This document shows positions 236 to 42,764 of a stretch of DNA of 42,766 nucleotides, in pieces. Every line of letters starts with the position of its first letter. The stretch's first letter is position 1. The notes beneath the pieces are model-generated. The model saw nothing but the letters and a program-made list of their open reading frames with translations, was not told where the DNA came from and did no database searches. The position numbers and the translations under genes were made by a program. This stretch comes from Candidatus Diapherotrites archaeon CG08_land_8_20_14_0_20_34_12 (GTDB taxonomy: Archaea; Iainarchaeota; Iainarchaeia; Iainarchaeales; 0-14-0-20-34-12), in assembly GCA_002779065.1 (NCBI GenBank), contig PEXL01000017.1:1-42766 (forward strand), read 5' to 3'.

Positions 236-385
236 AATGTTTGTGACATACTATGCATCATAAATGATGTAGCTTCCTAATTCATCGCTTCTTTATTGAG
301 AAGCTCCAAAGGCATACAGGCCCTGCCCAGACCCACTTCATATTTTATTTTTATAAGAATACCAGCGCTTTCAGCCTTGTATTCT
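215..385 (-). ncRNA. Candidate structured non-coding transcript driven by the motif-1/TATA promoter
   Basis: A TATA (416-409, - strand) preceded by motif copy 1 points leftwards, but no ATG occurs at the leaderless distance. The first ATG (341-339) opens only a 19-codon ORF. The region has locally G+C-rich hairpins (AAGAATAC-N16-GTATTCTT, GCTTCT-N6-AGAAGC, CATCAT-tt-ATGATG). Ends are guessed. Confidence 0.25.
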
Positions 386-408
386 TGATATAAGTTTGTA
401 ATTTGTAG

Positions 409-444
409 TATTTAAATCATGTGAAAGAGTAGATTTCCGGTGAA
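409..444 (-). promoter_or_regulatory. Promoter: TATA box (TTTAAATA on the - strand, 409-416) plus conserved upstream motif copy 1 (427-444)
   Basis: Plus strand reads GAGTAGATTTCCGGTGAA, 10 nt from the TATA box. The architecture matches the HerA, NurA, PolB-like and NTase promoters. Confidence 0.5.
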
Positions 445-524
445 ATATTCACTTTCATCTACTTCTTAAAAGAGACAAATTTCACGCTCATAAAGGTTTA
501 ATAACCTAGTTATCTATTTGCAAT

Positions 525-1094: not shown

Positions 1095-1104
1095 GTGGTC
1101 AAAA

Positions 1105-2178: not shown

Positions 2179-2765
2179 TTAAAATGCCTGAGATCTATGT
2201 TGGAGTAAAATTCAAAACTATTTTTTTAAAGAAAGAAGTCCCTAAAGGAAAACTGAATAAAAAATTGATTGAAATTGGAAAGAAAATTGCAAAATACGAG
2301 CTGAACGGGAATATGGGCTGGGGCAATATAAGTTACAGATTTGAAAATGGCTTTGTGATAAATGCCACAAAGGAGAACATTGGGCATCTGGATGAAAAAA
2401 AACTTGTTTTTGTAAAGTCTGTTGATTGGAAGAAAAAATGTGTAAAAGGCATTGGCCTAAAAGAACCTAGTTCAGAATGTTTTATGCATGCCGCTGCTTA
2501 TGAGTTAAGGAAAGACGTTAATGTTGTGCTGCATCTGCATGATGATTTGGTTTTAAAGCATGCAAAAGAACTCGGGATTAAAGAAACAATAAATGAAAAA
2601 CCATATGGAACAATTGAATTGGCAGAAGAAATCAAAAAAGTTCTTGGGATGAGGAATTGCGTTGCAATAAAGAACCACGGAATTCTGGCATTAGGGAAAA
2701 ATATCAGAGAAGCTTTTGATTTGGCATTAAAAATGCATAAAAAATCTGAAGAGTTGAAAAAATAA
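2175..2765 (+). CDS. Class II aldolase/adducin-family protein (MtnB/Ald2-like)
   Basis: Metal-ligand pattern VVLHLHDD and NHGILALG. Overlaps the mtnA stop by 4 nt. Confidence 0.7.
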   Translation: MIKMPEIYVGVKFKTIFLKKEVPKGKLNKKLIEIGKKIAKYELNGNMGWGNISYRFENGFVINATKENIGHLDEKKLVFVKSVDWKKKCVKGIGLKEPSSECFMHAAAYELRKDVNVVLHLHDDLVLKHAKELGIKETINEKPYGTIELAEEIKKVLGMRNCVAIKNHGILALGKNIREAFDLALKMHKKSEELKK

Positions 2766-2774
2766 TCAGCTATC

Positions 2775-3809
2775 TTACGGATTTAAAATTACCTTCATTG
2801 ATTCGTCTGCCTTTGCAACCAACCGGAAACCTTTCTGTGCCTCATCTAATGGCAAGTTATGGGTAATTAAATCGCTTACAGTAACTTTTTTTGATTTAAT
2901 TAGGTTAATAGCTTCTTCAAGGTCTAAGGGAGACGCTGCATAACTTGTTTTTAATGTGATTTCATTCCTCCAAAGATTGCTTAGGGATAAGCAAGTTTTG
3001 TCCTCTGGCTTAGGAACCGCAAAAAATAAAATTGTGCCACCTCTTTCTATTGAATTGAAGGATTGTTCAATTGCGGAACTTGCCCCTGTGCATACTATGA
3101 CACGATCTACTAAAAGGCCATTATTGAAAGATTTTATTTTTTCTATGATATTTTCCCTTGCATCTATTGCAATTGCCCCTAATTTTTTTGCAAAATTCAA
3201 ACGAAATTCTGAGATGTCTGTTGCAAATATTTTTTTTATGCCAAGGGATTTTGCGAGCTTTATGTGCAATAAACCTGAAATTCCAGAACCTAAAACAAGC
3301 AAGGATTCTGCTGATTTTATATCTGCCAATCTCTGCCCTCTGACAACACAGCCTAAGGGTTCAATAAAAGTGGCATCATCAAAGGAAACCTCTTTTGGCA
3401 ATAAAAATGTTCCTTTTTCAACATTTATCTTTGGCACTTGCAGGTATTGTGAAAATCCCCCTGGATAAAAATTTGTTTTGTGCAGGGTTTCACAAGCAGT
3501 ATGATGGCTTTGCTTGCAGTAATGGCAATTGCCACAGGGAACATGATGGGAAACAAAAACTCCCTCTCCTTTCCTGAATTTTTTTACTTTTTTTCCTACT
3601 TGGATTATTTCTCCTGAAATTTCATGCCCTAAAACACGTGGGGCTGTCTTTATGCGATACCATTCCAAAACATCAGAGCCGCAAATACCTGAAGAAATTA
3701 CTTTAACAAGAATTTCGTCTTTTGAGATTTCAGGAATTTGCATTTCTTCAATTCGCACATCATTGTTGTTGTAATACATTGCAACTTTCATTTTTTCCAT
3801 GAAAATCAA
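2775..3809 (-). CDS. Zinc-dependent alcohol dehydrogenase (MDR family, threonine/sorbitol dehydrogenase-like)
   Basis: GICGSDV, GHEISGEI, structural-zinc CGNCHYC and Rossmann motif GSGISG. The true start is probably an internal Met (MKVAMYY). Confidence 0.8.
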   Translation of the reverse strand: MIFMEKMKVAMYYNNNDVRIEEMQIPEISKDEILVKVISSGICGSDVLEWYRIKTAPRVLGHEISGEIIQVGKKVKKFRKGEGVFVSHHVPCGNCHYCKQSHHTACETLHKTNFYPGGFSQYLQVPKINVEKGTFLLPKEVSFDDATFIEPLGCVVRGQRLADIKSAESLLVLGSGISGLLHIKLAKSLGIKKIFATDISEFRLNFAKKLGAIAIDARENIIEKIKSFNNGLLVDRVIVCTGASSAIEQSFNSIERGGTILFFAVPKPEDKTCLSLSNLWRNEITLKTSYAASPLDLEEAINLIKSKKVTVSDLITHNLPLDEAQKGFRLVAKADESMKVILNP

Positions 3810-3831
3810 AGGTGTTTATTGTATTGATAAA

Positions 3832-4632
3832 TTAATCAAATTTTTTCTGCTTTTCCTTCTTGCCTTTCTCAAACAAATCGAGCGCTTCATTTACATTAAA
3901 GCCGTCATGCACTATTGACCTTACTGCCTTTATCATTGCTACAGGATAATCTGATTGAAATATATTACGGCCCATATCAACCCCTACAGCACCTTCTGAA
4001 ATTGCATTATAAGCAAGTTCAAGCGCTTCTTTTTCTGAAACCTTTGTGCCGCCTGCAACCACTATTGGAACCGGACACGAATCTACTATTTGTGAGAAAT
4101 CCTTACAATAATAAGTTTTTACAAAATGTGCTCCAAGTTCAGCAGCAATCCTGCAGGCCAATCCTAAATATCTTGCATCCCTGCCCATATCTTTCCCAAC
4201 AGCAGTTACTGCCAAAACCGGCATTCCACATTGTTCACCTTCATCAACAAGCTTCGCCAAATTTAACAATGTCTGCCTTTCATATTGGGCACCAACAAAG
4301 ATTGATAAAGCAACAGCAGAAGCATTCAACCTTAAAGCATCTTCCATTGCACAGGTAAGACCCTCATTTGAAAGTTCTGTTAAAACACTGGTACCGCCTG
4401 AAACCCTAAGAACAATGGGAACTTCGATTTTGTCTGAAACACTTGCCCTCAAAACACCACGCGTAAGCATTAAAGCATCAGCATATTGCTGCAATGCTGA
4501 AATTGTTTCTACGGGTTTTTTCAAGCCAGTAGTAGGCCCTAAAAAATAGCCGTGGTCTACTGCCAGCATGACTGTTTTGCCTGTTTTTGGCTTGATTATT
4601 TTTGATAACCTATTTTTCAATCCCCAGCTCAT
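3832..4632 (-). CDS. Class I aldolase of the DhnA / MJ0400 family (FBP aldolase or ADH synthase type)
   Basis: VDHG, LRVSGGTS, Schiff-base region FVKTYY, VVAGG and GRNIFQ. Collinear by eye with MJ0400-type sequences. Confidence 0.8.
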   Translation of the reverse strand: MSWGLKNRLSKIIKPKTGKTVMLAVDHGYFLGPTTGLKKPVETISALQQYADALMLTRGVLRASVSDKIEVPIVLRVSGGTSVLTELSNEGLTCAMEDALRLNASAVALSIFVGAQYERQTLLNLAKLVDEGEQCGMPVLAVTAVGKDMGRDARYLGLACRIAAELGAHFVKTYYCKDFSQIVDSCPVPIVVAGGTKVSEKEALELAYNAISEGAVGVDMGRNIFQSDYPVAMIKAVRSIVHDGFNVNEALDLFEKGKKEKQKKFD

Positions 4633-20672: not shown

Positions 20673-21311
20673 ATGAAGATATTAGCTATTAGTGACATTC
20701 ATAATGAGATCCAGAACCTTGATAAATTACTGTGGAGCATTAATAAAAAGGATGTTGATTTAACCATAATTTGCGGGGATATAACTAATTATGGCCCAAA
20801 GGATTATGCTGAAAGGATCATTGATAAATTTGCTTTTGCAAAACTTTTAGCCATACCTGGAAACCTTGACTTAAATGAAGTTTTAACTCTGCTTGAAACA
20901 AAAAATATTTCAATACATGGAAAAAGACTGAAACTAGATGGTTTTAATGTTGCCGGATATGGGGGAGGATTAGTTGGAAGTGCCGGAGTAATCTTAAATA
21001 TGGAAGAAAAAATCAAAAGGGATTTGGCAAAAATAGTTGATAGTAAAACTATGCTAGTTACACATCTGCCCCCAATAAATTCAACATTAGATAATGCTGA
21101 TGGGAAGCACATTGGCAGCAAGGCTGTTAGAGAAATAATTGAAACAAAAAAACCTTTCTTGCATTTATGCGGACATGCGCATGAATCTCCGGCTGAAGAA
21201 AAAATAAATGAAACTTTTTGCATAAATGTTGGTTCAGTAAAGAATTTTGTTGGGACACTAATCGAAATTGATGGCAGTAAAAACATTTCCTGTAAGAGGC
21301 TGAAATTTTAA
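20673..21311 (+). CDS. Small calcineurin-like metallophosphoesterase
   Basis: ISDIHN, CGDITNYG, PGNLD and CGHAHE. Confidence 0.75.
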   Translation: MKILAISDIHNEIQNLDKLLWSINKKDVDLTIICGDITNYGPKDYAERIIDKFAFAKLLAIPGNLDLNEVLTLLETKNISIHGKRLKLDGFNVAGYGGGLVGSAGVILNMEEKIKRDLAKIVDSKTMLVTHLPPINSTLDNADGKHIGSKAVREIIETKKPFLHLCGHAHESPAEEKINETFCINVGSVKNFVGTLIEIDGSKNISCKRLKF

Positions 21312-21958
21312 TGGAGAAAAAATCCTCAAATACAAAAAACAGCAGAAAAATATCACAAAAAGCCAATCTGGAGGAAAACCGTTTCAAGATGGTTAAGGAA
21401 AGGCATCGCAAAACATTTGAAGAAGCATTAGCAAAAGGAAAGATGGATGAAAAACTAGTTAATTTTTGCAAATATGTTTCTTCTACCAGAAATTACTTCA
21501 CATCTTCATGCTGTTCTGGAAGGATTTTGTTATTAAGAATTGAGGGGAATGATAGGGATAAAAGAAATTGTCATTTTCACAGGAAATGGCATGATATTGT
21601 TTCACTTTCTGAAGTTTTAGCAGGAATAAATGAGGATACTAAAGGCAGGATATGGTTTAAGGTTGAACCATTTATTCTGCATTTGGGCTGCAAAGATCTT
21701 GAAAATGCAAAAAAAATACTTGAAGTAATGAAATTAGCCGGCATTAAAAGGGGTGGCATAATTGTTGCTAAAGAAGGAAAATTTATGGTTGAATTTATGG
21801 GAACCCAGGAAATGTCATTTTTAGCCAAAGAAGATGATGCTATTTTAGTGGATAAAGGATATTTGGAAAATGCAGTTAATGAAGCTAATCGAAAAATGAC
21901 TGTAAATGAAGAAATGCTTATTCGCTTAGAAAAAGAGGTAAGAAAAAAATTGAAATAA
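21311..21958 (+). CDS. taw3: tRNA wybutosine-synthesis protein 3 (Taw3/TYW3-like methyltransferase)
   Basis: SSCCSGRI motif and the overall size are typical of TYW3. Confidence 0.6.
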   Translation: MEKKSSNTKNSRKISQKANLEENRFKMVKERHRKTFEEALAKGKMDEKLVNFCKYVSSTRNYFTSSCCSGRILLLRIEGNDRDKRNCHFHRKWHDIVSLSEVLAGINEDTKGRIWFKVEPFILHLGCKDLENAKKILEVMKLAGIKRGGIIVAKEGKFMVEFMGTQEMSFLAKEDDAILVDKGYLENAVNEANRKMTVNEEMLIRLEKEVRKKLK

Positions 21959-21973
21959 TGCCAAAGGATAAAA

Positions 21974-22525
21974 ATGGGTTTTGATATAATGCCAAGCAGG
22001 ATGAAAAGAATCTTTATTGCAGTGAATTTGCCGGATGAGATAAAAGAATCATTCCAAAAGCTAATTGAAAAACTGCCTAAAGAAAAAGTAAAGGCTGTGA
22101 AAAAAGAAAATCTTCACATTACAATGAAATTTTTGGGGGACATTCCTGAAGAAAAGCTCGCTGAAATCTATAGCAAACTCCAAGATTTGAATAAATTTGT
22201 GAAATTTGAAGTTGAGCTTTCAGATATTGGCTTTTTCAAAACAAGGATCTTATGGATAGGCATTACTAAAGGAAAGGAGATGCTTGAAAATATTGCTAAA
22301 GAAATTGAGAATCTCTTGGCTTTAAATAAAGAGGAATTTACAAGCCATATTACAATTGCAAGAAATAAGTTTTTAGGGTCTGAAGAATTTAAATTATTAG
22401 CTGGGGAATTAAAAAAGATTAAAATTTCCGGGAAATTCACTGTTAAAAGCATCGATGTGATGGAATCGGTTCTTGAAAAAGCCGGATCTAATTATAAGAT
22501 ACTTAAAAGAATTGAATTGAAATAA
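21974..22525 (+). CDS. thpR: RNA 2',3'-cyclic phosphodiesterase (2H family, ThpR/LigT)
   Basis: Two HxT motifs, HITMKF and HITIAR. Confidence 0.8.
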   Translation: MGFDIMPSRMKRIFIAVNLPDEIKESFQKLIEKLPKEKVKAVKKENLHITMKFLGDIPEEKLAEIYSKLQDLNKFVKFEVELSDIGFFKTRILWIGITKGKEMLENIAKEIENLLALNKEEFTSHITIARNKFLGSEEFKLLAGELKKIKISGKFTVKSIDVMESVLEKAGSNYKILKRIELK

Positions 22526-22555
22526 AAAATGATTAAGGAATTAAAATTCATTAAA

Positions 22556-24085
22556 TTAGTAGGTTTTTGACACTTCTTTTAGTAAAATCTCTGGCTCTGA
22601 ATAATATTGCTGAACTCTTTTTTCCACTTCGTGATGCTCTCTTATGCCTTTTTCCAGCATCCACTGCAAAATATGTTGCCTAATAAGCAATTCATCCTTT
22701 ATCTGTCTTTTATTCATAAAGGTTCGTTCAGCTAAAACTTCTAATAAATGTGAAGGAACATCGGATCTATCAACAGAATCATTAGTTTTATTCCATTCAT
22801 AAACATTGCTTAGCAGTACCTTATCCTCCATTCTGCTAATCTCTGCTATCTCTTTTACTCGCCTAATTACTCCTTTGTTTTTATCATACATTTTTACCAT
22901 CACAATACTCAGATCAAGCAAGGGAAGCAAGCTCTCTGGCACACTCATTGGTGGGCTTTTTAACCTTGATAGCATTTCCTTCGATGAATTTGAATGGAAT
23001 GTCCCTAGCACACCTTTATGGCCTGTATCCATTGCTATGAATAATGTTTGCGCTTCAGGACCTCTTACTTCTCCAACAATTATTCTGTCGGGCCTCATTC
23101 TCAAAACATTTACTAACAAATCTTCCATAGATGCTTTTGTAACTGATTCTAAACGAACAGAATTTTCTCTGCTCCCTAAATCTAATTCTAAAGTATCTTC
23201 AATGGTAAGAAGCCTGTTATTATAGGGAATAAAACTGATTAGCGTATTTACTAATGTTGTTTTTCCCGATCCTGCCCCGCCAGTAACAATCAAGTTCATT
23301 GGATCTATTTTTAATCCTTCGACAGTTACCCAAAGAAAAGCTGCGCTTTCCAAACTTATTGTTTTATTCTGGATAAGATCAATTATAGAGTAAGGGACAT
23401 TACTGAATTTTCTTATAGTTAAAGTATGACCTAAAGGAGTAACTGAAGAATATGTTGCATTAGCCCTATCCCCATCAGGAAGTCTTGCATCAAGCAATGG
23501 ATCATTTTCATCAATTTTCTTATTTACACTAAAGGCAATTTTATTTAGCAAATGCTCAATCTGTTCCTTGCCTATTATAATGTTTGTTTTGCACATCCCG
23601 TACTTTCTGTGAAATACAAAAACTGATTGGTTAATTCCATTAACCATTATTTCTTCCAGGTTAGGATCTCTTTTGAGATCCGCCAAAGCCCCAAAACCGA
23701 TTGAACTGTCAAGTATTGCTTCAGCAAAATCATTTGGGTCTTCAATCTCCTTGAAAATATTCTGAATCATTTTTGAAATTTTACTTTTTAATTCGTTAAA
23801 TTCTTCTTCTGAAGGCAGCCTTTGCACTAATTGTTCTGACTCGATATATTGCACAATAAATTGCAGATCATCTAAACAATTTTCCTTTGTAACCCCTGGA
23901 AGTTTGGCTTTTAGTTCAGAAAGAGTAAGCTTTCTTAATAAAAATCTGCTCAATGCATAAATATCGGATAACTCATTTTCAGAAAAGAGTTGTTCTAAAT
24001 GGTATAAATTATAAGGAAATGATTGGTATAATGTAAAATTCTTATATGACTCTAGCAATCTTTGGCCAGTATTTATTGCAGACAT
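22556..24085 (-). CDS. Type II/IV secretion-family ATPase (FlaI/PilB/VirB11-like)
   Basis: Walker A GGAGSGKTT, RPDRIIVGEVRG and His-box GTFHSNS. Confidence 0.8.
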   Translation of the reverse strand: MSAINTGQRLLESYKNFTLYQSFPYNLYHLEQLFSENELSDIYALSRFLLRKLTLSELKAKLPGVTKENCLDDLQFIVQYIESEQLVQRLPSEEEFNELKSKISKMIQNIFKEIEDPNDFAEAILDSSIGFGALADLKRDPNLEEIMVNGINQSVFVFHRKYGMCKTNIIIGKEQIEHLLNKIAFSVNKKIDENDPLLDARLPDGDRANATYSSVTPLGHTLTIRKFSNVPYSIIDLIQNKTISLESAAFLWVTVEGLKIDPMNLIVTGGAGSGKTTLVNTLISFIPYNNRLLTIEDTLELDLGSRENSVRLESVTKASMEDLLVNVLRMRPDRIIVGEVRGPEAQTLFIAMDTGHKGVLGTFHSNSSKEMLSRLKSPPMSVPESLLPLLDLSIVMVKMYDKNKGVIRRVKEIAEISRMEDKVLLSNVYEWNKTNDSVDRSDVPSHLLEVLAERTFMNKRQIKDELLIRQHILQWMLEKGIREHHEVEKRVQQYYSEPEILLKEVSKTY

Positions 24086-24146
24086 TTGTTTAATATAAGT
24101 AGAAAGAATTATTTAATGGTTATCCCTTAAGAATTAAGGAAAGAAT

Positions 24147-25532
24147 ATGGTCAAAAATATGGAAGCTATGCTTTCAAAAATAGTCAAAAGGATAAAGCCT
24201 TCGAAAACAGAAAAAGAAGCAGAAAAAAAGCTTATTGATAAGATTTTCGGCAAAATTAAGAAGATTGAAGGAAAGCATATTGAGGTAATGCATTGTGGTT
24301 CTTCTGCACGCGATACAGACATTGGTGGAGACAAAGATTTGGATATTTTTGTTTTGTTCCCAAAAAAAATGAAAAGGGCTGAATTTGAAAAAGAAGGGTT
24401 AAGGATAGGCAGAACTGTTTTCAAAGGTAAAAAATGGGAGGAATGTTATTCTGAACATCCTTATGTTAGGGGGCAAATGGATAACTTTGTAATTGAGATA
24501 GTACCTTCATATAAAGTAGAAGATGCTTCTGCAATGCAAAGCGCTGTTGACCGAAGCCCTTTACACCAAAAATATCTGCTTGAAAGGTTAACTGAAAAGC
24601 AAAAGGATGAAATAAGACTGTTAAGGGCATTTTTGAAGGGCATTGATTGTTATGGCGCTAAATTAAAGGTAAATTCAATGCCTGGTTATGCTGTTGAATT
24701 GTTGATTTTATACTATGGATCTTTTATGGGGTGTATAAAAGCTGCAGCAAATTGGAAGAATGGTGAAATAATTGACATTGAAAAACACTATTCCGATCCA
24801 AGTGAAGCAAAAAAGAAATTTAACCATCATTTAAATTTAGTAGACCCTACTGATAAAAACCGAAATGTGGCTGCTGCTGTGAGCTATAATCAATTTGCAA
24901 GATTTATTGCTGCTTGCAGAAAATTCCTGGAAAAACCAAATGAAAGATTCTTCTTCCCTGAGAAGAAAAAAGGATGGCCAATAAGTAAAATTAAGAAGAT
25001 GTTTAAGGAAAAAGAGATTTTAATTCTAAAGATACCTTACCCAAAAAATGCAATCAGTGATGTAGTTTATGGGCAGATAAAAAATCTTACTAAAAAAATG
25101 AAAACCCGGCTTAAATTAAATGATTTTATTGTAAAATCGAGCGGAGAATGGACAGATGAGAAAAGTATTATTGTAAATGCGTTTGAATTTGAATCACTTG
25201 AAATTGAAAGAGTCAAAAAACATTTGGGGCCGGAAATAGCAGATGCAAAAAATGCTGCCATTTTCCTAAAATCACACAAAAAGATCATTTCTGGGCCAAT
25301 AATTGAAAATGGGCGCTGGGTAATTGAAAAAGAAAGGAAATTCTGGAATGCAAAAGAATTTTTGAAAGCTGAAATAAAAAAGATTGTGGTGAAAGATCCA
25401 TTAAATAAAACAATAAAGAAAGCAAGGGTTGTTGAGGAAAAGGATATTTTGCCTATTTACAAAAAGGATTGTGAATTTGCTTCATTTATTACTGCTTTTT
25501 TAAAAAACCGGGAAGATTTTTTGGATTGGTAG
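24147..25532 (+). CDS. cca: CCA-adding enzyme, archaeal class I tRNA nucleotidyltransferase
   Basis: GSSARDTDIGGDKDLDIFVLF and RSPLHQKYL. Confidence 0.85.
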   Translation: MVKNMEAMLSKIVKRIKPSKTEKEAEKKLIDKIFGKIKKIEGKHIEVMHCGSSARDTDIGGDKDLDIFVLFPKKMKRAEFEKEGLRIGRTVFKGKKWEECYSEHPYVRGQMDNFVIEIVPSYKVEDASAMQSAVDRSPLHQKYLLERLTEKQKDEIRLLRAFLKGIDCYGAKLKVNSMPGYAVELLILYYGSFMGCIKAAANWKNGEIIDIEKHYSDPSEAKKKFNHHLNLVDPTDKNRNVAAAVSYNQFARFIAACRKFLEKPNERFFFPEKKKGWPISKIKKMFKEKEILILKIPYPKNAISDVVYGQIKNLTKKMKTRLKLNDFIVKSSGEWTDEKSIIVNAFEFESLEIERVKKHLGPEIADAKNAAIFLKSHKKIISGPIIENGRWVIEKERKFWNAKEFLKAEIKKIVVKDPLNKTIKKARVVEEKDILPIYKKDCEFASFITAFLKNREDFLDW

Positions 25533-25595
25533 ATTTTTAATTTTAAACGACCCCGGAGGGACTCGAACCCTCAACCCCCAGGTAACTTCACCAAG

Positions 25596-25655
25596 CCTTT
25601 TTCTTTCTTTTCTAAAGAAAGAAAAAGGCTAGGTCTTATCCAAAAAGAAAGAAAA
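25596..25655 (+). repeat. Y-hairpin-R plus mirror-R element, copy A1 (inside the tRNA-Arg intron)
   Basis: CCTTTTTCTTTCTT-ttcta-AAGAAAGAAAAAGG, linker CTAGGTCTTATCC, then AAAAAGAAAGAAAA. Confidence 0.7.
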
Positions 25656-25684
25656 TACTAATTATGCTTATTTTACAAGCAATA

Positions 25685-25749
25685 TTTCTCTTTTTTCTTT
25701 TGGCAACCTACATTTTCTTTTTTCTCTTTCTAAGAGAAAAAAGAAAAGG
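25685..25749 (-). repeat. Y-hairpin-R plus mirror-R element, copy A2 (inside the tRNA-Arg intron, opposite orientation)
   Basis: Minus strand: TTTTCTTTTTTCTCTT-aga-AAGAGAAAAAAGAAAA, linker TGTAGGTTGCC, then AAAAGAAAAAAGAGAAA, which is the exact mirror of R1. Confidence 0.7.
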
Positions 25750-25867
25750 CGGACCGAAGCCTGATGCTCTTCCAATTGAGCTACGGGGCCTAACGTACCT
25801 ATTTAAATAATTATTATAAGAATTTAAAGTAATATAACACAAATATAACTCAAATTTTGGTGATTTA

Positions 25868-30872: not shown

Positions 30873-30939
30873 TATTTAAAGAAAAGCAAAGAGAGTGGAT
30901 TTCCGGTGAAATTTCTAAAGCTAAGTGATTTCCGCTGAA
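30873..30939 (-). promoter_or_regulatory. Promoter of the PolB-like gene: TATA (30873-30880), motif copy 2a (30893-30910) and a tandem degenerate copy 2b (30924-30939)
   Basis: Plus strand reads GAGTGGATTTCCGGTGAA and AGTGATTTCCGCTGAA. The TATA is 21 nt from the ATG, and motif 2a is 12 nt from the TATA. Confidence 0.55.
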
Positions 30940-31664: not shown

Positions 31665-34600
31665 CTATGGGAGAAATTCTGCTGTTTCTTCCCTTGTTTT
31701 GTCTGCAGATTGCTCAAATTTCAGGGCTGCATCTTCCAAGGAAATTTCGTGCTTGCTTGGCATTGATTTTCTGTACCTTACCTTAAAAAATAATGGATAG
31801 CCTGTTGCTTCTCCAACAAGTAGGGCTTCCCCTACCTGCAATGAATTTATTATGCCAAAGCTTCTTTGGTCAATTCCTTCTGAAGATTCTGCTATATGCT
31901 TCAGATCATTTGGATTTGTAATACGCAGAATCATATGGGTTGAGCATTGTGATAGTGTTGTTGTATCTAATTGAACTGGCCTTTGGGAGATAATACAAAG
32001 AGACATACCAAACTTTCTTCCTTCCCTTGCAATTGTCCTTAAAATAGAACGGGAGATTGCTGATTCTTCTGAAACATGTTCAGGACACCACTGGTGTGCT
32101 TCCTCTGCAATTAAAAGGGTTGGAGGAATTACATTGGATTTCCTTTCATCAAACAGCTTGTTTGCAAAATAACTTACTATCATCTGCTTTTTTTTCATAT
32201 TAACTACATCTGAGAAATCAATTATTGTTAAAGTTCCTGGCTTAATTAATTCGGAAATTGCGGGCATATCTGTCCTTGCAAATAAATTGTAGGACATTAA
32301 ATCATCAATCCAGCCAAGTAAGGGGAATTTTGAATTCTGTTTTATATTATTATCTTTTAGGATTGCATCCTTTACATGTGACCAATCAAAAGGGCCTAAT
32401 CCTTTCCGCATATCCTCTTTCAAACAAGATAAAATTCTGCTCAGATCTCTTTTCTGCGGTGCGGTCAAACCAGGAATAATTCCTGCTAACATATGAACAC
32501 TCATTTTAGGAACAGCAATTCTGATATTTTGTGCTTTGATGATTTTTGTTCTGTCAGAAAAATCCTCATATTTGCCATCTTTCACTGGCTGGGCAAAGCT
32601 TGAATACTCGCCATGAGGGTCCAAAACCACTATTGCAATTCTGCCTTTTTGCTTTGGCCTATTAAGGAGTTCTTCAATTAGGCAAGCTGTGGAAAAACTA
32701 TTGTGAATAATCAAGTTATTTGCAACAAAATTGTGCTCTTCCACACACAAATCATAAACATACTTTTTGTCATAATCAACCTCTTCAACAGATTTAATCG
32801 CATCAAAAAACAAGCCATCAGAAACAAGAGTATGTAAAAAATCGAGTTTCTCCCTGATTTCGGGCAATTGCTTTTCTTTATCTATTGAAATAATAAAAAG
32901 ATTGTATAAAACCTTGTAAATATTTGAATATTTTATTGTATTTAGGGGATTATAAGAATAGCCATCCAAATATTGACCCCTAAATCCACTTCTGCAGCAT
33001 AATTCTCCTATCTCATAGCCAAGATTTTTGCACAAAACTCTAATTTGATTGGCTATTTGCTTAAAATCTAAATTAGTTATTGTATCTATCCCTAAATCTG
33101 ATTCATTTTCTAAAGCCAGAACATTTTTGGCCAAATAAAAGGTGTTTATAGTTGGTTCTGTTAAACCCCTTACTACTCTTCTTGCAGTAGTGTTTGAAAC
33201 CTTTGTATTCTTGGCAATTTTGTTAAAATCATATTTAGAATAGGCATTCACAAGTATTTGCTTTGCATCTTCTTCTGTCAAGTTAGGCATAACATAAAAT
33301 AATTTTTTTGTTTGGGTTATTGCGCTATGAATGTTCGCATAATTATGCTCAAATTCAGCTAGTAAAGATCTTAATGAAATAGGAGTCGGATCATCATGCC
33401 TTTCATTTAGTGACAAATAATTGGCAATATTGACAAATTGGTTTTGGGTTAAATTGAGCTTATTTTTTAGGAAACCTAAGGTATGTTTAATGTTGGGAAT
33501 TACCCTAACGTTTGAATTTGATTTTTTTAGAGAACATTCCTTGAGCGCTTTTGCTTTATAATCTATTAAAAGAGTTAATTCATTATTTAATATGTTTAAA
33601 TAATCTGCACCTCCTAAAAATAATCTGCCATATTGTTTGCCCTTAACTGTTTTTATCTTTCTTATTGGGTTTAATTTAAAGCGCAAAACTATTTGCTCTA
33701 TGTTGTCTAACATTTGCTTGCTGGCAAGGGTTATCTCAATATGTGATTTCTTGGAACAAACATAACCATCACAATCAATAAATGCACTCAAAAAAGCAGC
33801 CAAAACTGATTTTTTACTTAATAGAATTTCCTTGGGCACATATTTGGTCCAACTTGAATTAGTAAAACCTAGCTTAAACAAGCTATCTGCTAAAAGCTTG
33901 TTATAAATCCTAAGTTCAATATCCCTCTTTCTGTTAATATTTGCGACAATGCCCAACAGTTTTGCCAGGTTACTAAAATCGTCCCTAATTAAATTAGAAC
34001 TATTGGTAAAACTAATAGTTTGACCTCCGTTATGTCCTTCTGCTAACAAATAGGCCATGAACCTTGCAAAATTTTCATCAACCATAATCTTTGCAGGAAT
34101 TCTAGAAGACCGTACTTTTAATGTTTTTATTTTAGAGCATATCTCCAAAAAATTCATATCTAATTTGTCACAAATTAATTTAAGATTATTTAGAGAAACT
34201 CCAGGGTAGGATAATAAATATTGCAGTTTTCTTGATGGCATATTAACAATTCTAGAGAACTCCTTCATTGAATATTTTTCAAAGAGTTTTGACTTTAATT
34301 CAGCTAAAATGGATTTATCATCAACCCTGACCTTAGTAGAATTCTCCCATAATTGTACAAAATCAATTATTTGTTCCGAACCCGCTATTTGAGGCATTGC
34401 CGTAATTAGATAATCTTTTTTAGCAAGATTTTTAGCTTGAACCCAGTTTATTTGCTCATTTAGAATAGGTATTGGGTGTTCTGGAGTAACTAATAATTGT
34501 TTGCCTGTTCTTGTTTTGATTTTGAACATTTTTTTAGGGGCTTTCCTGCGCATAAATGCCTTAATTTCAGAAGCTATTGGTTGATTATTTTCATCCAATG

Positions 34601-35261
34601 AAATTACTTTCAAATTATTTGGGTTAATATCACACAATTCAACATTGTCTTCAATTACTTTTTTATTTTCCAAATGCTTGTCGACAAGCTCGCCAAGCTT
34701 TACTGTGTCACCATTACCCAACAATATTTCAAGATTATAATCTCCGCATTTTCCGGAACCAGACATTGCCATAATTGCAAGGTGTTTTTTTAACATGCGA
34801 GTCATATTCAATTTTACTGGAAGATCATGATGTTCAACATTGCCTAAATGCATTCCAGATTCATCAAAATGGAAGAATTTCTTCAGTTTTTCATTGTCTG
34901 CAATCCTTACCTTTGAACCAGGACTTGGGGGGAAACTTGGCCTGTAAAAATTATCGCCGGAATAAACACCTAAAGGTTTTGTGTTTGCTACAAGATATTC
35001 CCATTCATGCACAGGGAATTGCTCAAACAACGCTTGGCCCTTTGATTCAAATTCCTTTACTGAATCAGCCCTTTCAAAATATTTATTAGTTCTAAAAACA
35101 TCCATTACCAATGCAATAAAATTCCCACTTGCATTTTCGATCTCAACAAATTGCCCTCTATGTATCAAACCGGAGGTAACAACAAAATCTGCAGTGCTAG
35201 GGCTTGGAGAATTAATTGCAGATATAACTGTTCCAACTGTTTGTGCATTCTTTGCGACCAT
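31665..35261 (-). CDS. herA: HerA hexameric DNA translocase/helicase, interrupted by an intein in the Walker A motif
   Basis: Exteins give a P-loop GSGK|S, Walker B LLIAEEAHQW, and ISQRPVQLDTTTLSQCSTHMILRITNPND. The spliced product would be 515 aa. Confidence 0.85.
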   Translation of the reverse strand: MVAKNAQTVGTVISAINSPSPSTADFVVTSGLIHRGQFVEIENASGNFIALVMDVFRTNKYFERADSVKEFESKGQALFEQFPVHEWEYLVANTKPLGVYSGDNFYRPSFPPSPGSKVRIADNEKLKKFFHFDESGMHLGNVEHHDLPVKLNMTRMLKKHLAIMAMSGSGKCGDYNLEILLGNGDTVKLGELVDKHLENKKVIEDNVELCDINPNNLKVISLDENNQPIASEIKAFMRRKAPKKMFKIKTRTGKQLLVTPEHPIPILNEQINWVQAKNLAKKDYLITAMPQIAGSEQIIDFVQLWENSTKVRVDDKSILAELKSKLFEKYSMKEFSRIVNMPSRKLQYLLSYPGVSLNNLKLICDKLDMNFLEICSKIKTLKVRSSRIPAKIMVDENFARFMAYLLAEGHNGGQTISFTNSSNLIRDDFSNLAKLLGIVANINRKRDIELRIYNKLLADSLFKLGFTNSSWTKYVPKEILLSKKSVLAAFLSAFIDCDGYVCSKKSHIEITLASKQMLDNIEQIVLRFKLNPIRKIKTVKGKQYGRLFLGGADYLNILNNELTLLIDYKAKALKECSLKKSNSNVRVIPNIKHTLGFLKNKLNLTQNQFVNIANYLSLNERHDDPTPISLRSLLAEFEHNYANIHSAITQTKKLFYVMPNLTEEDAKQILVNAYSKYDFNKIAKNTKVSNTTARRVVRGLTEPTINTFYLAKNVLALENESDLGIDTITNLDFKQIANQIRVLCKNLGYEIGELCCRSGFRGQYLDGYSYNPLNTIKYSNIYKVLYNLFIISIDKEKQLPEIREKLDFLHTLVSDGLFFDAIKSVEEVDYDKKYVYDLCVEEHNFVANNLIIHNSFSTACLIEELLNRPKQKGRIAIVVLDPHGEYSSFAQPVKDGKYEDFSDRTKIIKAQNIRIAVPKMSVHMLAGIIPGLTAPQKRDLSRILSCLKEDMRKGLGPFDWSHVKDAILKDNNIKQNSKFPLLGWIDDLMSYNLFARTDMPAISELIKPGTLTIIDFSDVVNMKKKQMIVSYFANKLFDERKSNVIPPTLLIAEEAHQWCPEHVSEESAISRSILRTIAREGRKFGMSLCIISQRPVQLDTTTLSQCSTHMILRITNPNDLKHIAESSEGIDQRSFGIINSLQVGEALLVGEATGYPLFFKVRYRKSMPSKHEISLEDAALKFEQSADKTREETAEFLP
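32700..34748 (-). mobile_element. 683-aa intein with a LAGLIDADG homing-endonuclease domain
   Basis: Cys1 directly follows MSGSGK (CGDYNLEILL). The C-terminus is NNLIIHN with +1 Ser restoring GKS. LAGLIDADG blocks are FMAYLLAEGHNG and FLSAFIDCDGYV. Hint block B is LLVTPEHP. Confidence 0.85.
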
Positions 35262-35282: not shown

Positions 35283-35318
35283 TTTATAAAGGATTGCGAA
35301 GAGTAGATTTCCGCTGAA
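35283..35318 (-). promoter_or_regulatory. herA promoter: TATA (35283-35290) plus motif copy 3 (35301-35318)
   Basis: Plus strand reads GAGTAGATTTCCGCTGAA. The motif is 10 nt from TTTATAAA, which is 21 nt from the herA ATG. Confidence 0.55.
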
Positions 35319-35324
35319 TGGCCC

Positions 35325-35400
35325 CTTTCTTTTCTTAAAAAGAAAAGAAAGACCCCAGGGTTCAAAGAAAAGAAGGAAAATTTTGCAAGAAAAAAGAAGG
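35325..35400 (+). repeat. Y-hairpin-R plus mirror-R element, copy B (with a third purine tract)
   Basis: CTTTCTTTTCTT-aaa-AAGAAAAGAAAG, linker ACCCCAGGGTTC, AAAGAAAAGAAGG, AAAATTTTGC, then AAGAAAAAAGAAGG. Confidence 0.7.
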
Positions 35401-35406
35401 ATAAAA

Positions 35407-36051
35407 TTATTTTCTATATTTTTTATACGTAGCTTCTATCTGACTTCGATAATCTGGGAAGTGTTCAGTTAATCTGAACAAATTAGGCCTCATCGGATCA
35501 GAATCAAAATCAGCATATGCCTTGCGGCTGTAATAGATTGCACCAACATCAGTTATTGCCCTTGATGCGATATGCGCTGATTCGTGTTTTGGGCTCCGGA
35601 AATAAAGCAACCAAGGTTCTGTAACACTCCTGCCTTTAAGTATAAATAATCCGTTATTATGCATTATTGCCAAATCCCTTGCAATGCCTTTTATTAATGA
35701 TTCGGCATTCACACACCCTTGAATAATATCAGGATCGAAATGTAAATCCAAAGCAATTGTTCTGCCGCCTTTTGACAAATCCCTTGCGAAAAGATATTTT
35801 CTTTCTGAAATTCCCTCCACCTTGGCAGTTGGAATTTTTAATTTCCGCAATCTGGAAAAGATGGCTTTATGCCTTCTGGCAACAGCACTTTCAGAAGCAG
35901 AAGTATGCTGAAAAAATCTTTTTCGTAAAAGATGTTTCTTGCGATAACCTCTGCCTGAAGCAAATGCAAGAACCTCTATGGCATCCCTTCCACTATTCCT
36001 TGAACCTGTCTGCCTTGCTTTGGCAAACCTTATTCTGTTTGGCTTAGGCAT
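35407..36051 (-). CDS. Uncharacterised Arg-rich protein, paralogue of 30946-31623 (family A)
   Basis: See the paralogue entry. The N-terminus MPKPNRIRFAKARQ is basic. Confidence 0.6.
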   Translation of the reverse strand: MPKPNRIRFAKARQTGSRNSGRDAIEVLAFASGRGYRKKHLLRKRFFQHTSASESAVARRHKAIFSRLRKLKIPTAKVEGISERKYLFARDLSKGGRTIALDLHFDPDIIQGCVNAESLIKGIARDLAIMHNNGLFILKGRSVTEPWLLYFRSPKHESAHIASRAITDVGAIYYSRKAYADFDSDPMRPNLFRLTEHFPDYRSQIEATYKKYRK

Positions 36052-38272: not shown

Positions 38273-38308
38273 TATATAAAGAAGTGGAAAGAGTGGATTT
38301 CCGGTGAA
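38273..38308 (-). promoter_or_regulatory. nurA promoter: TATA (38273-38280) plus motif copy 4 (38291-38308)
   Basis: Plus strand reads GAGTGGATTTCCGGTGAA, 10 nt from TTTATATA. Confidence 0.55.
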
Positions 38309-38313
38309 CCCAT

Positions 38314-38394
38314 CCTTTTCTTTCTTTCGCAAAGAAAGAAAAGTCTAGGTGCTGACAAAAGAAAGAAAACTTAGTTGCCAAAAGAGAAAGAAAA
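38314..38394 (+). repeat. Y-hairpin-R plus mirror-R element, copy C (with a third purine tract)
   Basis: CCTTTTCTTTCTTT-cgc-AAAGAAAGAAAAG, linker TCTAGGTGCTGAC, AAAAGAAAGAAAA, CTTAGTTGCC, then AAAAGAGAAAGAAAA. Confidence 0.7.
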
Positions 38395-39174: not shown

Positions 39175-39212
39175 CATTTAAATTGGTTTTCAAGGAGCAG
39201 ATTTCCGCTGAA
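39175..39212 (-). promoter_or_regulatory. NTase operon promoter: TATA (39175-39182) plus motif copy 5 (39195-39212)
   Basis: Plus strand reads GAGCAGATTTCCGCTGAA, 12 nt from TTTAAATG, which is 19 nt from the ATG. Confidence 0.5.
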
Positions 39213-42568: not shown

Positions 42569-42612
42569 ATTCGTTTTTTAAATCCTATTCTAAAGAGTTA
42601 TTTGTACAAAAT

Positions 42613-42702
42613 GGGCCCGTAGCTCAGTTGGCAGAGCACCAGACTCTTAGTTCAATAAAAGGAGCTATCTGGGTGTCCTGGGTTCGAATCCCAGCGGGCT
42701 CG
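42613..42702 (+). tRNA. tRNA-Lys(CUU) with a 17-nt intron (42650-42666) at position 37/38
   Basis: GGGCCCG TA GCTC AGTTGGCA GAGC A CCAGA CT CTT A [gttcaataaaaggagct] A TCTGG GTGTC CTGGG TTCGAAT CCCAG CGGGCTC G. BHB central helix is CTCT/GGAG. No CCA is encoded. Confidence 0.9.
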
Positions 42703-42711
42703 TTACCGAAC

Positions 42712-42764
42712 CTCTCTTTTCTTTACGAAAGAAAAGAGAGTTGAGGTGTGTCAGAGAAAAGAAA
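42712..42764 (+). repeat. Y-hairpin-R plus mirror-R element, copy D (9 nt downstream of tRNA-Lys, cut by the window end)
   Basis: CTCTCTTTTCTTT-acg-AAAGAAAAGAGAG, linker TTGAGGTGTGTC, then AGAGAAAAGAAA, the mirror of R1. Confidence 0.7.

Follow-up and report, generated by a model that had tools for sequence, protein, structure and literature searches.

A 170-nt intron in a predicted tRNA-Arg(UCG) gene of a Diapherotrites archaeon contains two inverted copies of a pyrimidine/purine hairpin element with a mirror tract

A tRNA-Arg(UCG) gene that, judged by its sequence, is intact and carries a genuine intron lies at 25790..25548 (−) of contig PEXL01000017.1 from Candidatus Diapherotrites archaeon CG08_land_8_20_14_0_20_34_12, which was analysed over its full 42,766 nt and is called the window below. 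The intron consists of two inverted copies, A and B, of a ~55–70-nt element, flanking a 29-nt centre. Read in sense, the element comprises a pyrimidine third strand, a linker of ~11 nt, a pyrimidine arm, a 3-nt loop, a purine arm and a GC tail, and the comparison of many copies indicates that selection holds the three tracts in register. In the reading that we prefer, and regard as roughly evenly poised, the gene would be functional and its intron, cut by the archaeal splicing endonuclease (EndA), would have been enlarged by two copies of this selected three-strand module. The first-pass annotation of the stretch had recognised the BHB and the two mirror copies, and this anatomy stands. It had missed the wide family to which the copies belong and the rule that governs their orientation, and the best splice-competent fold contains no strict h'. 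The locus is laid out as follows:

25548..25790, minus strand: tRNA-Arg(UCG) gene including the intron (Rfam tRNA model, ARAGORN intron mode, spliced cloverleaf)
25754..25790, minus strand: 5' exon, tRNA positions 1-37, with CUUC (32-35) at 25759..25756 and G36, G37 at 25755..25754
25584..25753, minus strand: intron, 170 nt, at position 37/38 (Rfam tRNA model, ARAGORN, folding z = -7.4)
25685..25753, sense on the plus strand, antisense in the tRNA transcript: element A (covariance model, 70.4 bits), with third-strand tract 25685-25701, linker GGCAACCTACA 25702-25712, pyrimidine arm 25713-25728, loop 25729-25731, purine arm 25732-25747 and tail GGCGGA 25748-25753
25656..25684, minus strand: centre, 29 nt, with a 7-bp hairpin at 25681..25665 (direct reading, folding)
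25590..25655, minus strand, sense in the tRNA transcript: element B (covariance model, 51.7 bits), with third-strand tract 25655..25642, linker 25641..25629, pyrimidine arm 25628..25614, loop 25613..25611, purine arm 25610..25596 and an extended stem ACCUAGCC.../...GGCUUGGU down to 25590
25584..25589, minus strand: GAAG (25589..25586), the 3' strand of the 4-bp core helix, and the last intron bases UU in the 3' bulge (direct reading, constrained fold)
25548..25583, minus strand: 3' exon, tRNA positions 38-73 (direct reading, ARAGORN, in-silico splicing)

Detection of the gene needed the intron mode of ARAGORN and the E-value mode of Rfam; it was missed by ARAGORN in default mode and by Rfam at the gathering threshold. 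The Rfam tRNA model, scoring 42.4 bits (E = 1.4e-7), covered 25548-25790 (−) and placed an insert of 173 nt within the anticodon loop, and ARAGORN reported tRNA-Arg(tcg) at c[25548,25790] with an intron i(38,170). Splicing in silico gave a product of 73 nt, again called tRNA-Arg(tcg) by ARAGORN, which forms a perfect cloverleaf with every stem paired. Direct reading of the junctions showed that the 5' exon ends in ...CAGG-CUUC-GG, that the intron starts with U-CCGCC and ends in ...GGCUUGGU-GAAG-UU, and that the 3' exon starts with A-CCUGG. The core splice motif is a 4-bp helix, CUUC(32-35)/GAAG, between two 3-nt bulges, G36 G37|U and UU|A38. A 170-nt intron at the canonical 37/38 site, with a drawable BHB, had been proposed from the letters alone, and its coordinates proved exact by the Rfam model, ARAGORN and direct reading. 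The same locus was assembled identically and independently in at least three metagenomes, with an identical intron in L001, L002 and L004, and is therefore not an assembly artefact.

Archaeal BHB tRNA introns at 37/38 are cut by EndA, and their exons are joined by RtcB. The window intron resembles them in its canonical site, in its 4-bp core between 3-nt bulges, in its intact exons and in having a short counterpart in a relative. It differs from the usual ones by a length about ten times what is usual in this genome, whose other introns measure 17 nt in tRNA-Lys (ARAGORN) and 41 nt, which bears out the earlier remark on the tRNA-Lys intron, and by the replacement of the outer helix with two autonomous hairpins. 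Instead of a C/D box RNA or a homing-endonuclease ORF, it holds a genome-wide repeat in two copies; a scan of the intron for C/D boxes (UGAUGA, CUGA) and for ORFs found none, as already stated from the bare sequence.

When the cloverleaf and the core helix were enforced, folding gave −93.1 kcal/mol, versus −94.8 kcal/mol unconstrained. At this cost of 1.7 kcal/mol both splice sites adjoin stable hairpins, in keeping with the view that the intron ends lie at hairpins: intron nucleotides 2-5 are paired inside hairpin A, and hairpin B lies flush with the core helix. A strict outer helix h', as in the hBHBh' form, is absent from the most stable splice-competent fold, and the motif is of the relaxed form. 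The sole outer-helix candidate, CGCC/GGUG, overlaps the core helix. Cleavage would therefore need a splicing endonuclease of relaxed specificity.

The stem of element A is 16 bp long and perfect, its mirror tract matches at 16/16 positions, and the end of its tail coincides exactly with the 5' splice site. Element B has a 15-bp stem and a mirror tract matching at 13/15 positions. On the tRNA strand the centre hairpin includes one G.U pair. This stem and mirror analysis agrees with the first description of the intron as two inverted pyrimidine/purine mirror elements around a small hairpin. Perfect pyrimidine/purine hairpins of at least 12 bp occur five times in the window, versus zero in each of 100 dinucleotide shuffles, which excludes chance. 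Rfam microRNA and leader families matched over the hairpins at low scores and were discarded as noise; no credible Rfam family other than tRNA was found for the element. Runs of T4-T6 in the pyrimidine arm begin 8 nt into the intron and could act as archaeal termination signals.

The two copies are not equivalent at the RNA level. As transcribed, element A reads pyrimidine arm, loop, purine arm, linker and purine third strand, and the formation of an RNA triple helix by this copy is doubtful. RNA triplexes with a purine third strand are disputed (review PMC7583470). Only copy B is oriented to give the well-established U.A-U type of RNA triplex. At the level of sequence, two U-rich strands and a downstream A-rich tract are found together in one transcript for element B and for the leader copies in L008, L073 and L122, not for antisense copies such as element A. 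Because copy A takes the purine-third-strand form in the transcript, an RNA-level role cannot explain that its mirror tract is kept.

A metagenome scan brought to light about 40 distinct copies of the element. The query was a single pattern, the linker TTTTGGCAACNTACATTTT, and the sample is biased towards one subfamily; about two thirds of the 119 matches arose by chance and had no element. Viral contigs yielded no copy, their single pattern match being a chance one. Members of the family scored 42-81 bits with the covariance model, on one strand only, and their hosts are contigs with protein relatives named Diapherotrites and Woesearchaeota (DPANN). We found no published description of such a family of triplex-hairpin elements. 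The common module is a perfect pyrimidine/purine hairpin of 10-16 bp with a 3-nt loop, lengthened at its base by pairing between the linker and the GC-rich tail. At ~11 nt, the linker, or second loop, has the recurrent sequence GGCAAC-N-TACA, and its pairing partner is a GGC-N-G tail. The family is ~80% A/T, with isolated C/G positions and tracts of variable sequence. One 69-nt copy, identical to element A, lies 1 nt before tRNA-Glu in L073 and L056; its borders are sharp, its flanks are unrelated, and the same sequence is used in both orientations.

In 20 different copies, 237 of the 246 layers fit U.A-U or C+.G-C triples at register 0. The G-C layers were isomorphic at this register in 34/39 cases, versus 0-6 of ~36 at shifted registers. 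The possibility that the third tract and the pyrimidine arm form an ordinary Watson-Crick helix was considered and rejected: direct orientation fits 4-13 of ~37 C/G layers, versus 34/39 for the mirror. Within the hairpin and the linker-tail helix, 96.3% of cells were paired and compensatory changes affected 9/13 pairs, which none of 500 shuffles matched. In terms of blocks, the second is the reverse complement of the first and the third is the mirror of the second. All three tracts have changed together between orthologous copies, for example in the tRNA-His trailers of L070/L141 versus L140, and changed in concert between the tRNA-Ser introns of L076 and L082. Copies within one genome differ in their C/G positions, yet the three tracts are matched in each. 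To our knowledge, mirror repeats cannot be generated by polymerases, so that matched tracts need selection at each site. We also know of few natural triple helices with 10-16 consecutive layers, the known ones being bacterial DNA repeats or RNA stability elements of eukaryotes or viruses. Three-way co-variation over dozens of copies is comparative evidence stronger than that for most proposed triplexes.

The position of the copies relative to RNA ends follows a simple rule: the base of the hairpin is always turned towards the mature RNA. Upstream of tRNAs, four sense copies are separated from position +1 by 0-2 nt; at least four antisense copies lie 2-8 nt past tRNA 3' ends. Introns that start with N(0-2)-CYGCC and a pyrimidine arm were found in tRNA-Tyr (two lineages), tRNA-Ser, tRNA-Glu, tRNA-Gly (two lineages) and an insertion of the 23S rRNA. 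In the window intron 1 nt precedes the CYGCC-type start, and in at least six other tRNA introns and a 23S rRNA insertion a single copy of the element begins at intron nucleotides 1-3; the window intron is the two-copy extreme of this recurring type. Single-copy introns extend only 20-35 nt beyond the element. In their minimum-energy folds the 5' CYGC pairs with a downstream GCRG as a normal outer helix, not with the linker, and none of the minimum-energy folds of the other element-bearing introns showed a clean 4-bp core. Occupied sites are shared by distant lineages: the element is found in the tRNA-Val(UAC) leaders of both L008 and L122, and tRNA-His trailers carry it across species whose HisRS is 71-74% identical to that of L070.

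Related tRNA introns have been proposed to spread among tRNA genes in Thermoproteales. In a similar way, the Arg, Tyr, Ser, Glu and Gly introns and that of the 23S rRNA share the module and their ends, N(0-2)-CYGCC... and ...GUU. Unlike the Thermoproteales introns, they belong to DPANN hosts, and the three-strand module also occurs outside introns, in tRNA leaders, and in both orientations.

Presence of the element is patchy. The comparison with an orthologous tRNA-Arg in a relative, which had been suggested as a check, was run on MAG H52-bin046_1, the closest relative, whose CCA enzyme is 90% identical and whose flanks align. The orthologous gene has an intron of ~13 nt at the same site, with no element, and no element was found in 21 kb of this MAG. 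The changes in the T arm between the two genes preserve stem pairing. At the tRNA-His site, L138/L139 have TTTATTTTT (oligo-T) in place of the element that is present in L070, L140 and L141. A close homologue of a 214-aa neighbouring gene, sought as a way to reach the relative's HerA/NurA sites, was not found.

From these comparisons the following scheme may be drawn for the preferred reading, that of a functional gene with an enlarged intron. EndA, recognising the BHB motif, would remove the intron at 37/38. The ancestral intron would have been short and would have grown to 170 nt through two inverted triplex-hairpin modules. As the third tract of the module mirrors the pyrimidine arm, each layer might form a T/U.A-T/U or C+.G-C triple, and the module sits so that the foot of its hairpin faces an edge of mature RNA, be it a tRNA 5' end, a tRNA 3' end or a 5' splice site. 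In copy A the extended hairpin would run from intron nucleotide 2, directly behind the 5' bulge; that of copy B would end at the nucleotide preceding the 4-bp core helix, and the third-strand tracts of A and B would pair with each other around the centre hairpin. The placement of the hairpins suggests, at somewhat less than an even chance, that they serve as rigid "bookends" which would shield tRNA folding from a 170-nt A/U-rich spacer, replace h' and keep the splice sites presented. The excised intron, probably circularised, would then be a very stable by-product. Both ideas voiced in the first-pass annotation, that the excised intron may be a stable RNA or that the elements may help to present the splice sites, likewise remain inferences.

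Other readings of the element and of the locus must be weighed against this one. A possible, if rather unlikely, one is that the element is a selfish, mobile structured repeat of the MITE or REP type, whose triplex serves only its own propagation (for instance through recognition of a single-stranded intermediate) and which persists at places that encode nothing or from which RNA processing excises it; the tRNA-Arg intron, as a tolerated landing pad, would simply have been hit twice. Like REP/BIME and MITE repeats, the element is short, abundant, hairpin-forming, intergenic and patchy, with identical copies at unrelated loci. The sharp borders and unrelated flanks of the 69-nt copy in L073 and L056, the absence from the 90%-identity relative, the replacement in L138/L139 and the occurrence of ~6 copies within 53 kb, of either orientation and in numerous contexts, would all be expected of such a repeat. 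However, the arms have no fixed core, and neither terminal inverted repeats, nor an adjacent RAYT or transposase, nor target-site duplications at the compared borders of copy A and L073 were found; viral contigs yielded no copy either. The element further departs from these repeats by its extra mirror tract and its orientation relative to RNA ends, and the tail-towards-RNA rule would need an unknown targeting mechanism. Mobility also accords poorly with tracts that are matched in each copy despite differing C/G positions, and with occupation of the same tRNA-Val(UAC) leaders and tRNA-His trailers in distant lineages. A pseudogene, or T-rich elements working as bidirectional terminators with the exons transcribed separately (split tRNA), appears highly improbable to us. 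It would account for the T4-T6 runs from 8 nt past the 5' exon, for terminator-like positions after genes and for the oligo-T at the tRNA-His site in L138/L139, but the exons are intact, the T-arm changes keep pairing and the core splice motif is preserved. The exons are moreover contiguous and in order within 243 nt, with no evident internal promoter, unlike those of a split or permuted gene, and the 20-35 nt past the element in single-copy introns are too short for an internal promoter. The terminator idea was set aside since the element also resides inside introns, tRNA leaders and the 23S rRNA insertion, the last two being necessarily transcribed through. No second tRNA-Arg(UCG) was seen among the contigs examined, a small part of the genome.

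The remaining alternatives place the triplex itself at the centre, in DNA or in RNA. The element could be a DNA-level intrastrand triplex, an archaeal A/T-rich counterpart of PIT/BoxC/TMECO that affects transcription, replication or recombination as its tracts fold on single-stranded or supercoiled DNA beside heavily transcribed stable-RNA genes; the intron RNA would be irrelevant and simply spliced out. We consider this quite unlikely. In its favour, the three-tract relation is kept whichever strand is transcribed, tRNA-His trailers and all single-copy introns having only the purine-third-strand RNA form, and one identical copy serves both orientations. TMECO (PMC4666352) has its blocks in the same order: pyrimidine arm, loop, purine arm, loop and purine third strand. 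TMECO loci are likewise intergenic, multi-copy and strain-variable. As in PIT/BoxC/TMECO (Holder et al. 2015, PMC4666352), three consecutive homopyrimidine/homopurine blocks on one strand make a hairpin plus a mirror, in multi-copy, non-coding sequences that vary between close strains. TMECO itself is G/C-rich and of the purine motif; its blocks measure 9 nt, its second loop measures 3 nt and its consensus is CCCTCNCCC-N3-6-GGGNGAGGG-N3-GGGNGAGGG (PMC4666352). The archaeal element departs from this consensus, being A/T-rich, with variable blocks of 10-16 nt and a second loop of ~11 nt, and unlike the bacterial elements it is tied to tRNA/rRNA processing sites and introns. Against a role in DNA, TMECO intrastrand triplexes were not stably detected in vivo, and harm would be expected from a structure that stalls polymerases within a 23S rRNA gene and at least seven tRNA genes. 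Orientation follows mature-RNA ends and not the direction of replication, being mixed within 20 kb. Finally, a conserved junction pair that is G.U on one strand is A.C on the opposite one, and in the L101 variant a G.U remains on the transcribed strand, which hints at a constraint at the RNA level. An RNA role of the MALAT1/MEN-beta type, in which the triple helix would have a 3' end made by RNase P or the endonuclease and tucked in by the linker-tail pairs, yielding long-lived functional small RNAs including the intron, seems very unlikely. Sense copies do have MALAT1's order of tracts (U-rich, U-rich, A-rich), with isolated C+.G-C among U.A-U layers. The C residues are always isolated, which fits the pyrimidine motif, and the tail and linker pair. 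The leader copies end 0-2 nt before tRNA +1, so that RNase P would make the 3' end at the foot of the triplex, as it makes that of MALAT1, and in L008 and L073 the element is preceded, at a distance of ~30-37 nt, by TATA-like boxes. In contrast to MALAT1/MEN-beta (ENE), the element is a plain hairpin with a linker-attached third strand, without U-rich internal loop, A-minor architecture, long cargo or any sequence or Rfam similarity. Most copies in precursors of stable RNAs have the opposite orientation in the host transcript (all single-copy introns, the trailers and the rRNA spacer copies), and the leader copies have no cargo RNA upstream, nothing indicating a function for such RNAs. A broader proposal, that DPANN systematically set a three-strand fold at the cleavage sites of tRNA/rRNA precursors, is one that we also doubt, at about the level of the mobile repeat. 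In it, the sense form would be the first archaeal MALAT1-type blunt-ended triplex, with a 3' end cut by RNase P or the endonuclease, and the tRNA-Arg intron would be an exceptionally stable, probably circular, triple-helix RNA.

The hosts are ultrasmall archaea with very compact genomes, and the element lies exactly at sites cut by RNase P, RNase Z and the splicing endonuclease. If functional, it would be a new structural module for archaeal RNA processing, and the intron would show that a short intron can grow tenfold with the presentation of its splice sites retained. If it acts in DNA, it would be the clearest case yet of selection on an intrastrand triplex. A practical consequence concerns annotation, as default tRNA finders (ARAGORN in default mode, Rfam at the gathering threshold) overlook such genes.

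Three further members of the family were located in the window with the covariance model:

42704..42764, minus strand: copy 8 nt past tRNA-Lys(CUU) (42612-42703, +), tail towards the tRNA 3' end
38307..38394, minus strand: copy directly 3' of the stop codon of a 55-aa gene, upstream of the NurA promoter
35316..35401, minus strand: copy between gene 35407..36051(−) and the HerA promoter

A 20-nt box, TTCASCGGAAATCYACTC, was considered as a part of the element or as a C/D RNA and rejected; it is an independent box upstream of promoters and also occurs at element-free sites. A search with this promoter box for a link between L073 and the genome of the window gave zero matches. Every hairpin is accompanied by a mirror tract, on one side and never on both. 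The copies at 38307..38394 and 35316..35401 each have an additional tract upstream, a mirror tract at 38394..38380 in the first and a pyrimidine tract in the second.

The tRNA-Arg(UCG) gene was missed by default ARAGORN and by Rfam at its gathering threshold. With introns allowed, the kind of tRNAscan-type search that the first-pass annotation had proposed, ARAGORN called tRNA-Arg(tcg) at c[25548,25790] and placed a 170-nt intron at position 38. The Rfam tRNA model, run in E-value mode, aligned end to end with 25548-25790 on the minus strand, scoring 42.4 bits (E = 1.4e-7) and leaving a 173-nt insert in the anticodon loop. The gene and the intron parts, in the tRNA direction, are as follows.

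25790..25548, minus strand: tRNA-Arg(UCG) gene with intron (direct reading, Rfam and ARAGORN)
Minus strand: 5' exon, GGCCCCGUAGCUCAAUUGGAAGAGCAUCAGGCUUCGG (direct reading)
25584-25753, minus strand: 170-nt insert between the two exons
Minus strand: intron start, U, then CCGCC (direct reading)
Minus strand: element A arms, 16-nt pyrimidine arm, loop AGA, 16-nt purine arm
Minus strand: element A remainder, UGUAGGUUGCC, then a purine tract that is an exact mirror (16/16) of the purine arm
Minus strand: intron centre, 29 nt with a 7-bp hairpin
Minus strand: element B third strand, a pyrimidine tract, 13/15 mirror of the following arm
Minus strand: element B remainder, linker GGAUAAGACCUAG, 15-nt pyrimidine arm, loop AGA, 15-nt purine arm
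Minus strand: intron end, CUUGGU, GAAG, UU
Minus strand: 3' exon, ACCUGGGGGUUGAGGGUUCGAGUCCCUCCGGGGUCG (direct reading)

Splicing in silico produced a 73-nt cloverleaf without flaws. The core helix pairs CUUC (positions 32-35) with the GAAG that sits just 5' of the final two intron bases, and leaves bulges G36-G37-U and U-U-A38. The first-pass annotation had placed the intron at exactly these coordinates; its core motif was borne out by direct reading, and C/D boxes and ORFs, which it had reported as missing from the intron, were looked for and none was present. Its description was thus accurate, whereas its interpretation (a stable excised RNA, or elements that help present the splice motif) is supported in part only. 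The locus was found without differences in at least three independently assembled metagenomes, and is therefore no assembly artefact. In the same window, tRNA-Lys(CUU) (42612-42703), reported as 'tRNA-???' by default ARAGORN, was resolved by the intron mode as carrying a 17-nt intron.

Given the order of parts along the intron, element B is arranged as the reverse complement of element A. Folding of the intron is much better than that of its shuffles (z = -7.4), and refolding with the cloverleaf and the 4-bp helix enforced gave -93.1 kcal/mol, versus -94.8 kcal/mol for the unconstrained minimum. In the constrained fold, the extended hairpin of element A starts at intron nucleotide 2, directly after the 5' bulge, that of element B stops one base before GAAG, and the third-strand tracts of A and B pair mutually around the centre hairpin. 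A canonical outer helix is absent from the intron, the sole candidate (CGCC/GGUG) overlapping the core helix, so that the splice motif is of the relaxed kind; with three of the four structural features present, the intron belongs to the archaeal spliced introns in a relaxed form.

Both elements belong to a wider family. The window contains exactly five perfect pyrimidine/purine hairpins of 12 bp or longer, against none in 100 dinucleotide shuffles, and each has a mirror tract on exactly one side, at a distance of 11-12 nt. Besides elements A and B, the window contains three copies.

42704-42764: copy 8 nt after tRNA-Lys
38307-38394: copy right after a small gene, before the NurA promoter
35316-35401: copy before the HerA promoter

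A sixth copy, ten kilobases past the window end, ends on the first base of tRNA-Val(UAC) and has the linker GGCAAC-N-TACA in common with element A. Public metagenomes were scanned for this linker, which yielded about 40 distinct copies with the sense consensus third strand, GG-CAAC-N-UA-CA, pyrimidine arm, 3-4-nt loop, purine arm, GG-C-N'-G. A covariance model built on 21 copies gave members 42-81 bits for the sense strand, and the hairpin alone just 20-30 bits for the opposite one. The hosts are archaea, as shown by the spliced tRNA introns and the archaeal 23S rRNA that carry the element. The CCA enzyme of the window has named relatives in Candidatus Diapherotrites, and contig L070 (L-numbers designate contigs compared with the window) has them in Candidatus Woesearchaeota, so the family spans DPANN lineages. 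No published description of it was found in reviews of RNA triple helices or by full-text search. The covariance model also finds long variants of 86-111 nt with apparently enlarged loops (L091 282-392, directly 3' of a tRNA-Ser; L054 380-465). Two elements after protein genes have an additional upstream pyrimidine tract (window 38380-38394 and 35387-35401), joined in one of them by GGCAACTAAG; it is either a second candidate third strand or a U-tract run right after the stop codon.

The register of the three strands was examined in 20 canonical copies with differing tract sequences, aligned at the junction. In mirror orientation at register 0, 237 of 246 layers were isomorphic (T with A-T, C with G-C), and the third strand had a C in 34 of 39 G-C layers. 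Shifting the register by 1-3 reduced the fitting G-C layers to 0-6 of about 36, and in direct orientation 4-13 of about 37 fitted. Hairpin and junction positions were paired at 96.3%, with double changes in 9 of 13 pairs, a level approached neither by any of 500 column shuffles nor by a slid control; linker base N, which varies, and tail base N' form U-A (10 copies), C-G (7) or G-C (1) pairs. Between orthologous tRNA-His trailers, the three tracts are altered jointly, from TTTTTCTCTT / AAGAGAAAAA / AAAAAGAGAA in L070 and L141 to TTTTCTCTTT / AAAGAGAAAA / AAAAGAGAAA in L140, as they are between the orthologous tRNA-Ser introns of L076 and L082. Errors of copying yield direct or inverted repeats, not mirror repeats, and the mirror relation must therefore be maintained by selection. 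As judged from the aligned copies, it is the three-tract register that is under selection.

The module is also placed systematically at RNA processing sites, the hairpin base (tail side) being always turned towards the mature RNA. In four cases (L008 Val, L073 Glu, L122 Val and L122 Gly), a sense copy precedes tRNA position +1 by 0-2 nt; antisense copies follow tRNA 3' ends at a distance of 2-8 nt (window Lys, L021 Ser, L036 Arg, L070 His, L072 Val), and at three loci the tail is 2-3 nt from the stop codon of an opposite-strand gene. The element starts other tRNA introns (Tyr in L037 and L069/L111, Ser in L076/L082, Glu in L094, Gly in L101 and L107) and, identically oriented and spaced, a 71-nt insertion within domain V of archaeal 23S rRNA (L058, L047, L113), located in L058 at about 3-75 on the minus strand, position 2573/2574 of the Rfam model. 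Two further copies are seen in L058 upstream of the 23S 5' end (2848-2904 and 3001-3054).

In all introns started by the element, and in the 23S rRNA insertion, the exon end is followed by 0-2 bases (one in the window) and then, in this order, by CYGCC, pyrimidine arm, loop, purine arm, UGUARGUUGCC and mirror purine tract, which makes the window intron the two-copy member of a recurring intron type. No other case found has a second copy, in sense orientation, at its 3' splice site. In the minimum-energy fold of the single-copy introns, the CYGC start pairs with a downstream GCRG as an ordinary outer helix, and the first half of the mirror tract folds with a conserved CUUUUG. The wider family adds to the interest of the tRNA-Arg intron and does not explain it away.

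Orthologous tRNA-Arg genes, whose comparison the first-pass annotation had suggested, differ in intron length. The closest relative, MAG archaeon H52-bin046_1, whose CCA enzyme is 90% identical, keeps the gene order, promoter region and T arm, and its tRNA-Arg(UCG) intron is only about 13 nt long; no element was found across 21 kb of syntenic DNA. On another contig from the same aquifer series, element A recurs as an identical 69-nt copy, sharply bordered and between unrelated flanks, 1 nt before a tRNA-Glu. At the tRNA-His site of Woesearchaeota, three relatives have the element and two (L138, L139) a plain TTTATTTTT tract, a clean presence/absence pair.

L138 2762-2775: TTTATTTTT tract just after tRNA-His

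Taken together, the relative lacking the element, the identical copy and the tRNA-His site indicate gain, loss or copying within the family over short time scales. Certain sites nevertheless remain occupied over deep divergence, such as the tRNA-Val leader in L008 and L122. Compared with L016 (about 11386), a contig of the same 90%-identity relative, the stretch separating the tRNA-Arg 3' end from the stop codon of the CCA gene contains an additional AGATTTTTAATTTT in the window (25533-25547), and the D arm and anticodon stem of tRNA-Arg are far more diverged than the flanking protein genes.

The gene is splice-competent, and its intron consists of two copies of a conserved module. In standard archaeal biology, endonuclease cleavage at both bulges is followed by ligation of the exons and by release and circularisation of the intron; the same would occur here, circularisation being probable. 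For the module itself we tentatively prefer, at somewhat less than even chance, the role of a rigid, fast-folding helical bookend, which would stop the long A/U-rich spacer from pairing with tRNA sequence and provide a helix beside the cleavage site. Copy A would occupy the 5'-strand spot where an outer helix should begin, and copy B would stack on the core helix on the 3' strand. A terminator role was considered and dropped, because the element is found within at least seven tRNA genes, within the 23S rRNA insertion and in leaders of tRNAs, and transcription has to pass through all of these.

The weak point of the bookend role is the third strand. Element tracts are about 80% A/T with no two adjacent C residues, a composition that favours the pyrimidine-motif triplex (U.A-U with isolated C+.G-C) and, by established triplex chemistry, serves the purine motif poorly. 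Within the tRNA transcript, this well-established RNA triplex is possible for copy B only; copy A and all single-copy intron and trailer copies have a purine third strand in the transcript, with the mirror relation conserved. An A.A-U/G.G-C RNA triplex may form in these copies; the evidence on purine-motif triplexes with an RNA third strand is conflicting (PMC7583470). Alternatively, selection may act on a fold of single-stranded DNA; the family would then be an A/T-rich archaeal counterpart of the bacterial intrastrand triplex repeats PIT, BoxC and TMECO (PMC4666352), which it resembles in its way of working as a repeat, although it does not match the TMECO consensus. The three-strand fold may also serve propagation of the element itself; the family is as patchy as mobile repeats, but lacks their hallmarks. 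Strand-specific G.U pairs point to a constraint on the transcribed RNA: the conserved junction, A.C when read on the sense strand, is G.U on the antisense strand, a G.U pair is kept by L101 in tRNA-sense RNA, and the centre hairpin of the tRNA-Arg intron has a G.U pair on the tRNA strand only. These are small hints, too few to decide. The sense copies preceding a tRNA recall the arrangement of the MALAT1/MEN-beta stability triple helices, but the element has neither the ENE architecture nor any model match.

Beside tRNA-Arg, tRNA-maturation genes are clustered at window about 21300-25532 (L001 genes 165-4386): TYW3, a LigT / 2'-5' RNA ligase-like phosphoesterase and the CCA-adding enzyme, the last convergent with tRNA-Arg across a 15-nt gap. 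Unrelated genes (HerA, NurA and others) share an 18-nt box, TTCASCGGAAATCYACTC, placed 8-13 nt upstream of their TATA-like boxes; the window has five matches to it, versus 0.03 expected.

Window 427-444, 30893-30910, 35301-35318, 38291-38308 and 39195-39212, all minus strand: box TTCASCGGAAATCYACTC
L008 19691-19708 and L088 81-98: box TTCASCGGAAATCYACTC outside the window

The box occurs both with and without the element, so it probably serves as a promoter or transcription-factor site specific to the lineage. The HerA-like DUF87 ATPase gene (window 31665-35261, minus strand) is split by an intein with a LAGLIDADG endonuclease domain, as seen from Pfam hits, and NurA, Rad50 and an Mre11-like phosphoesterase are encoded nearby.
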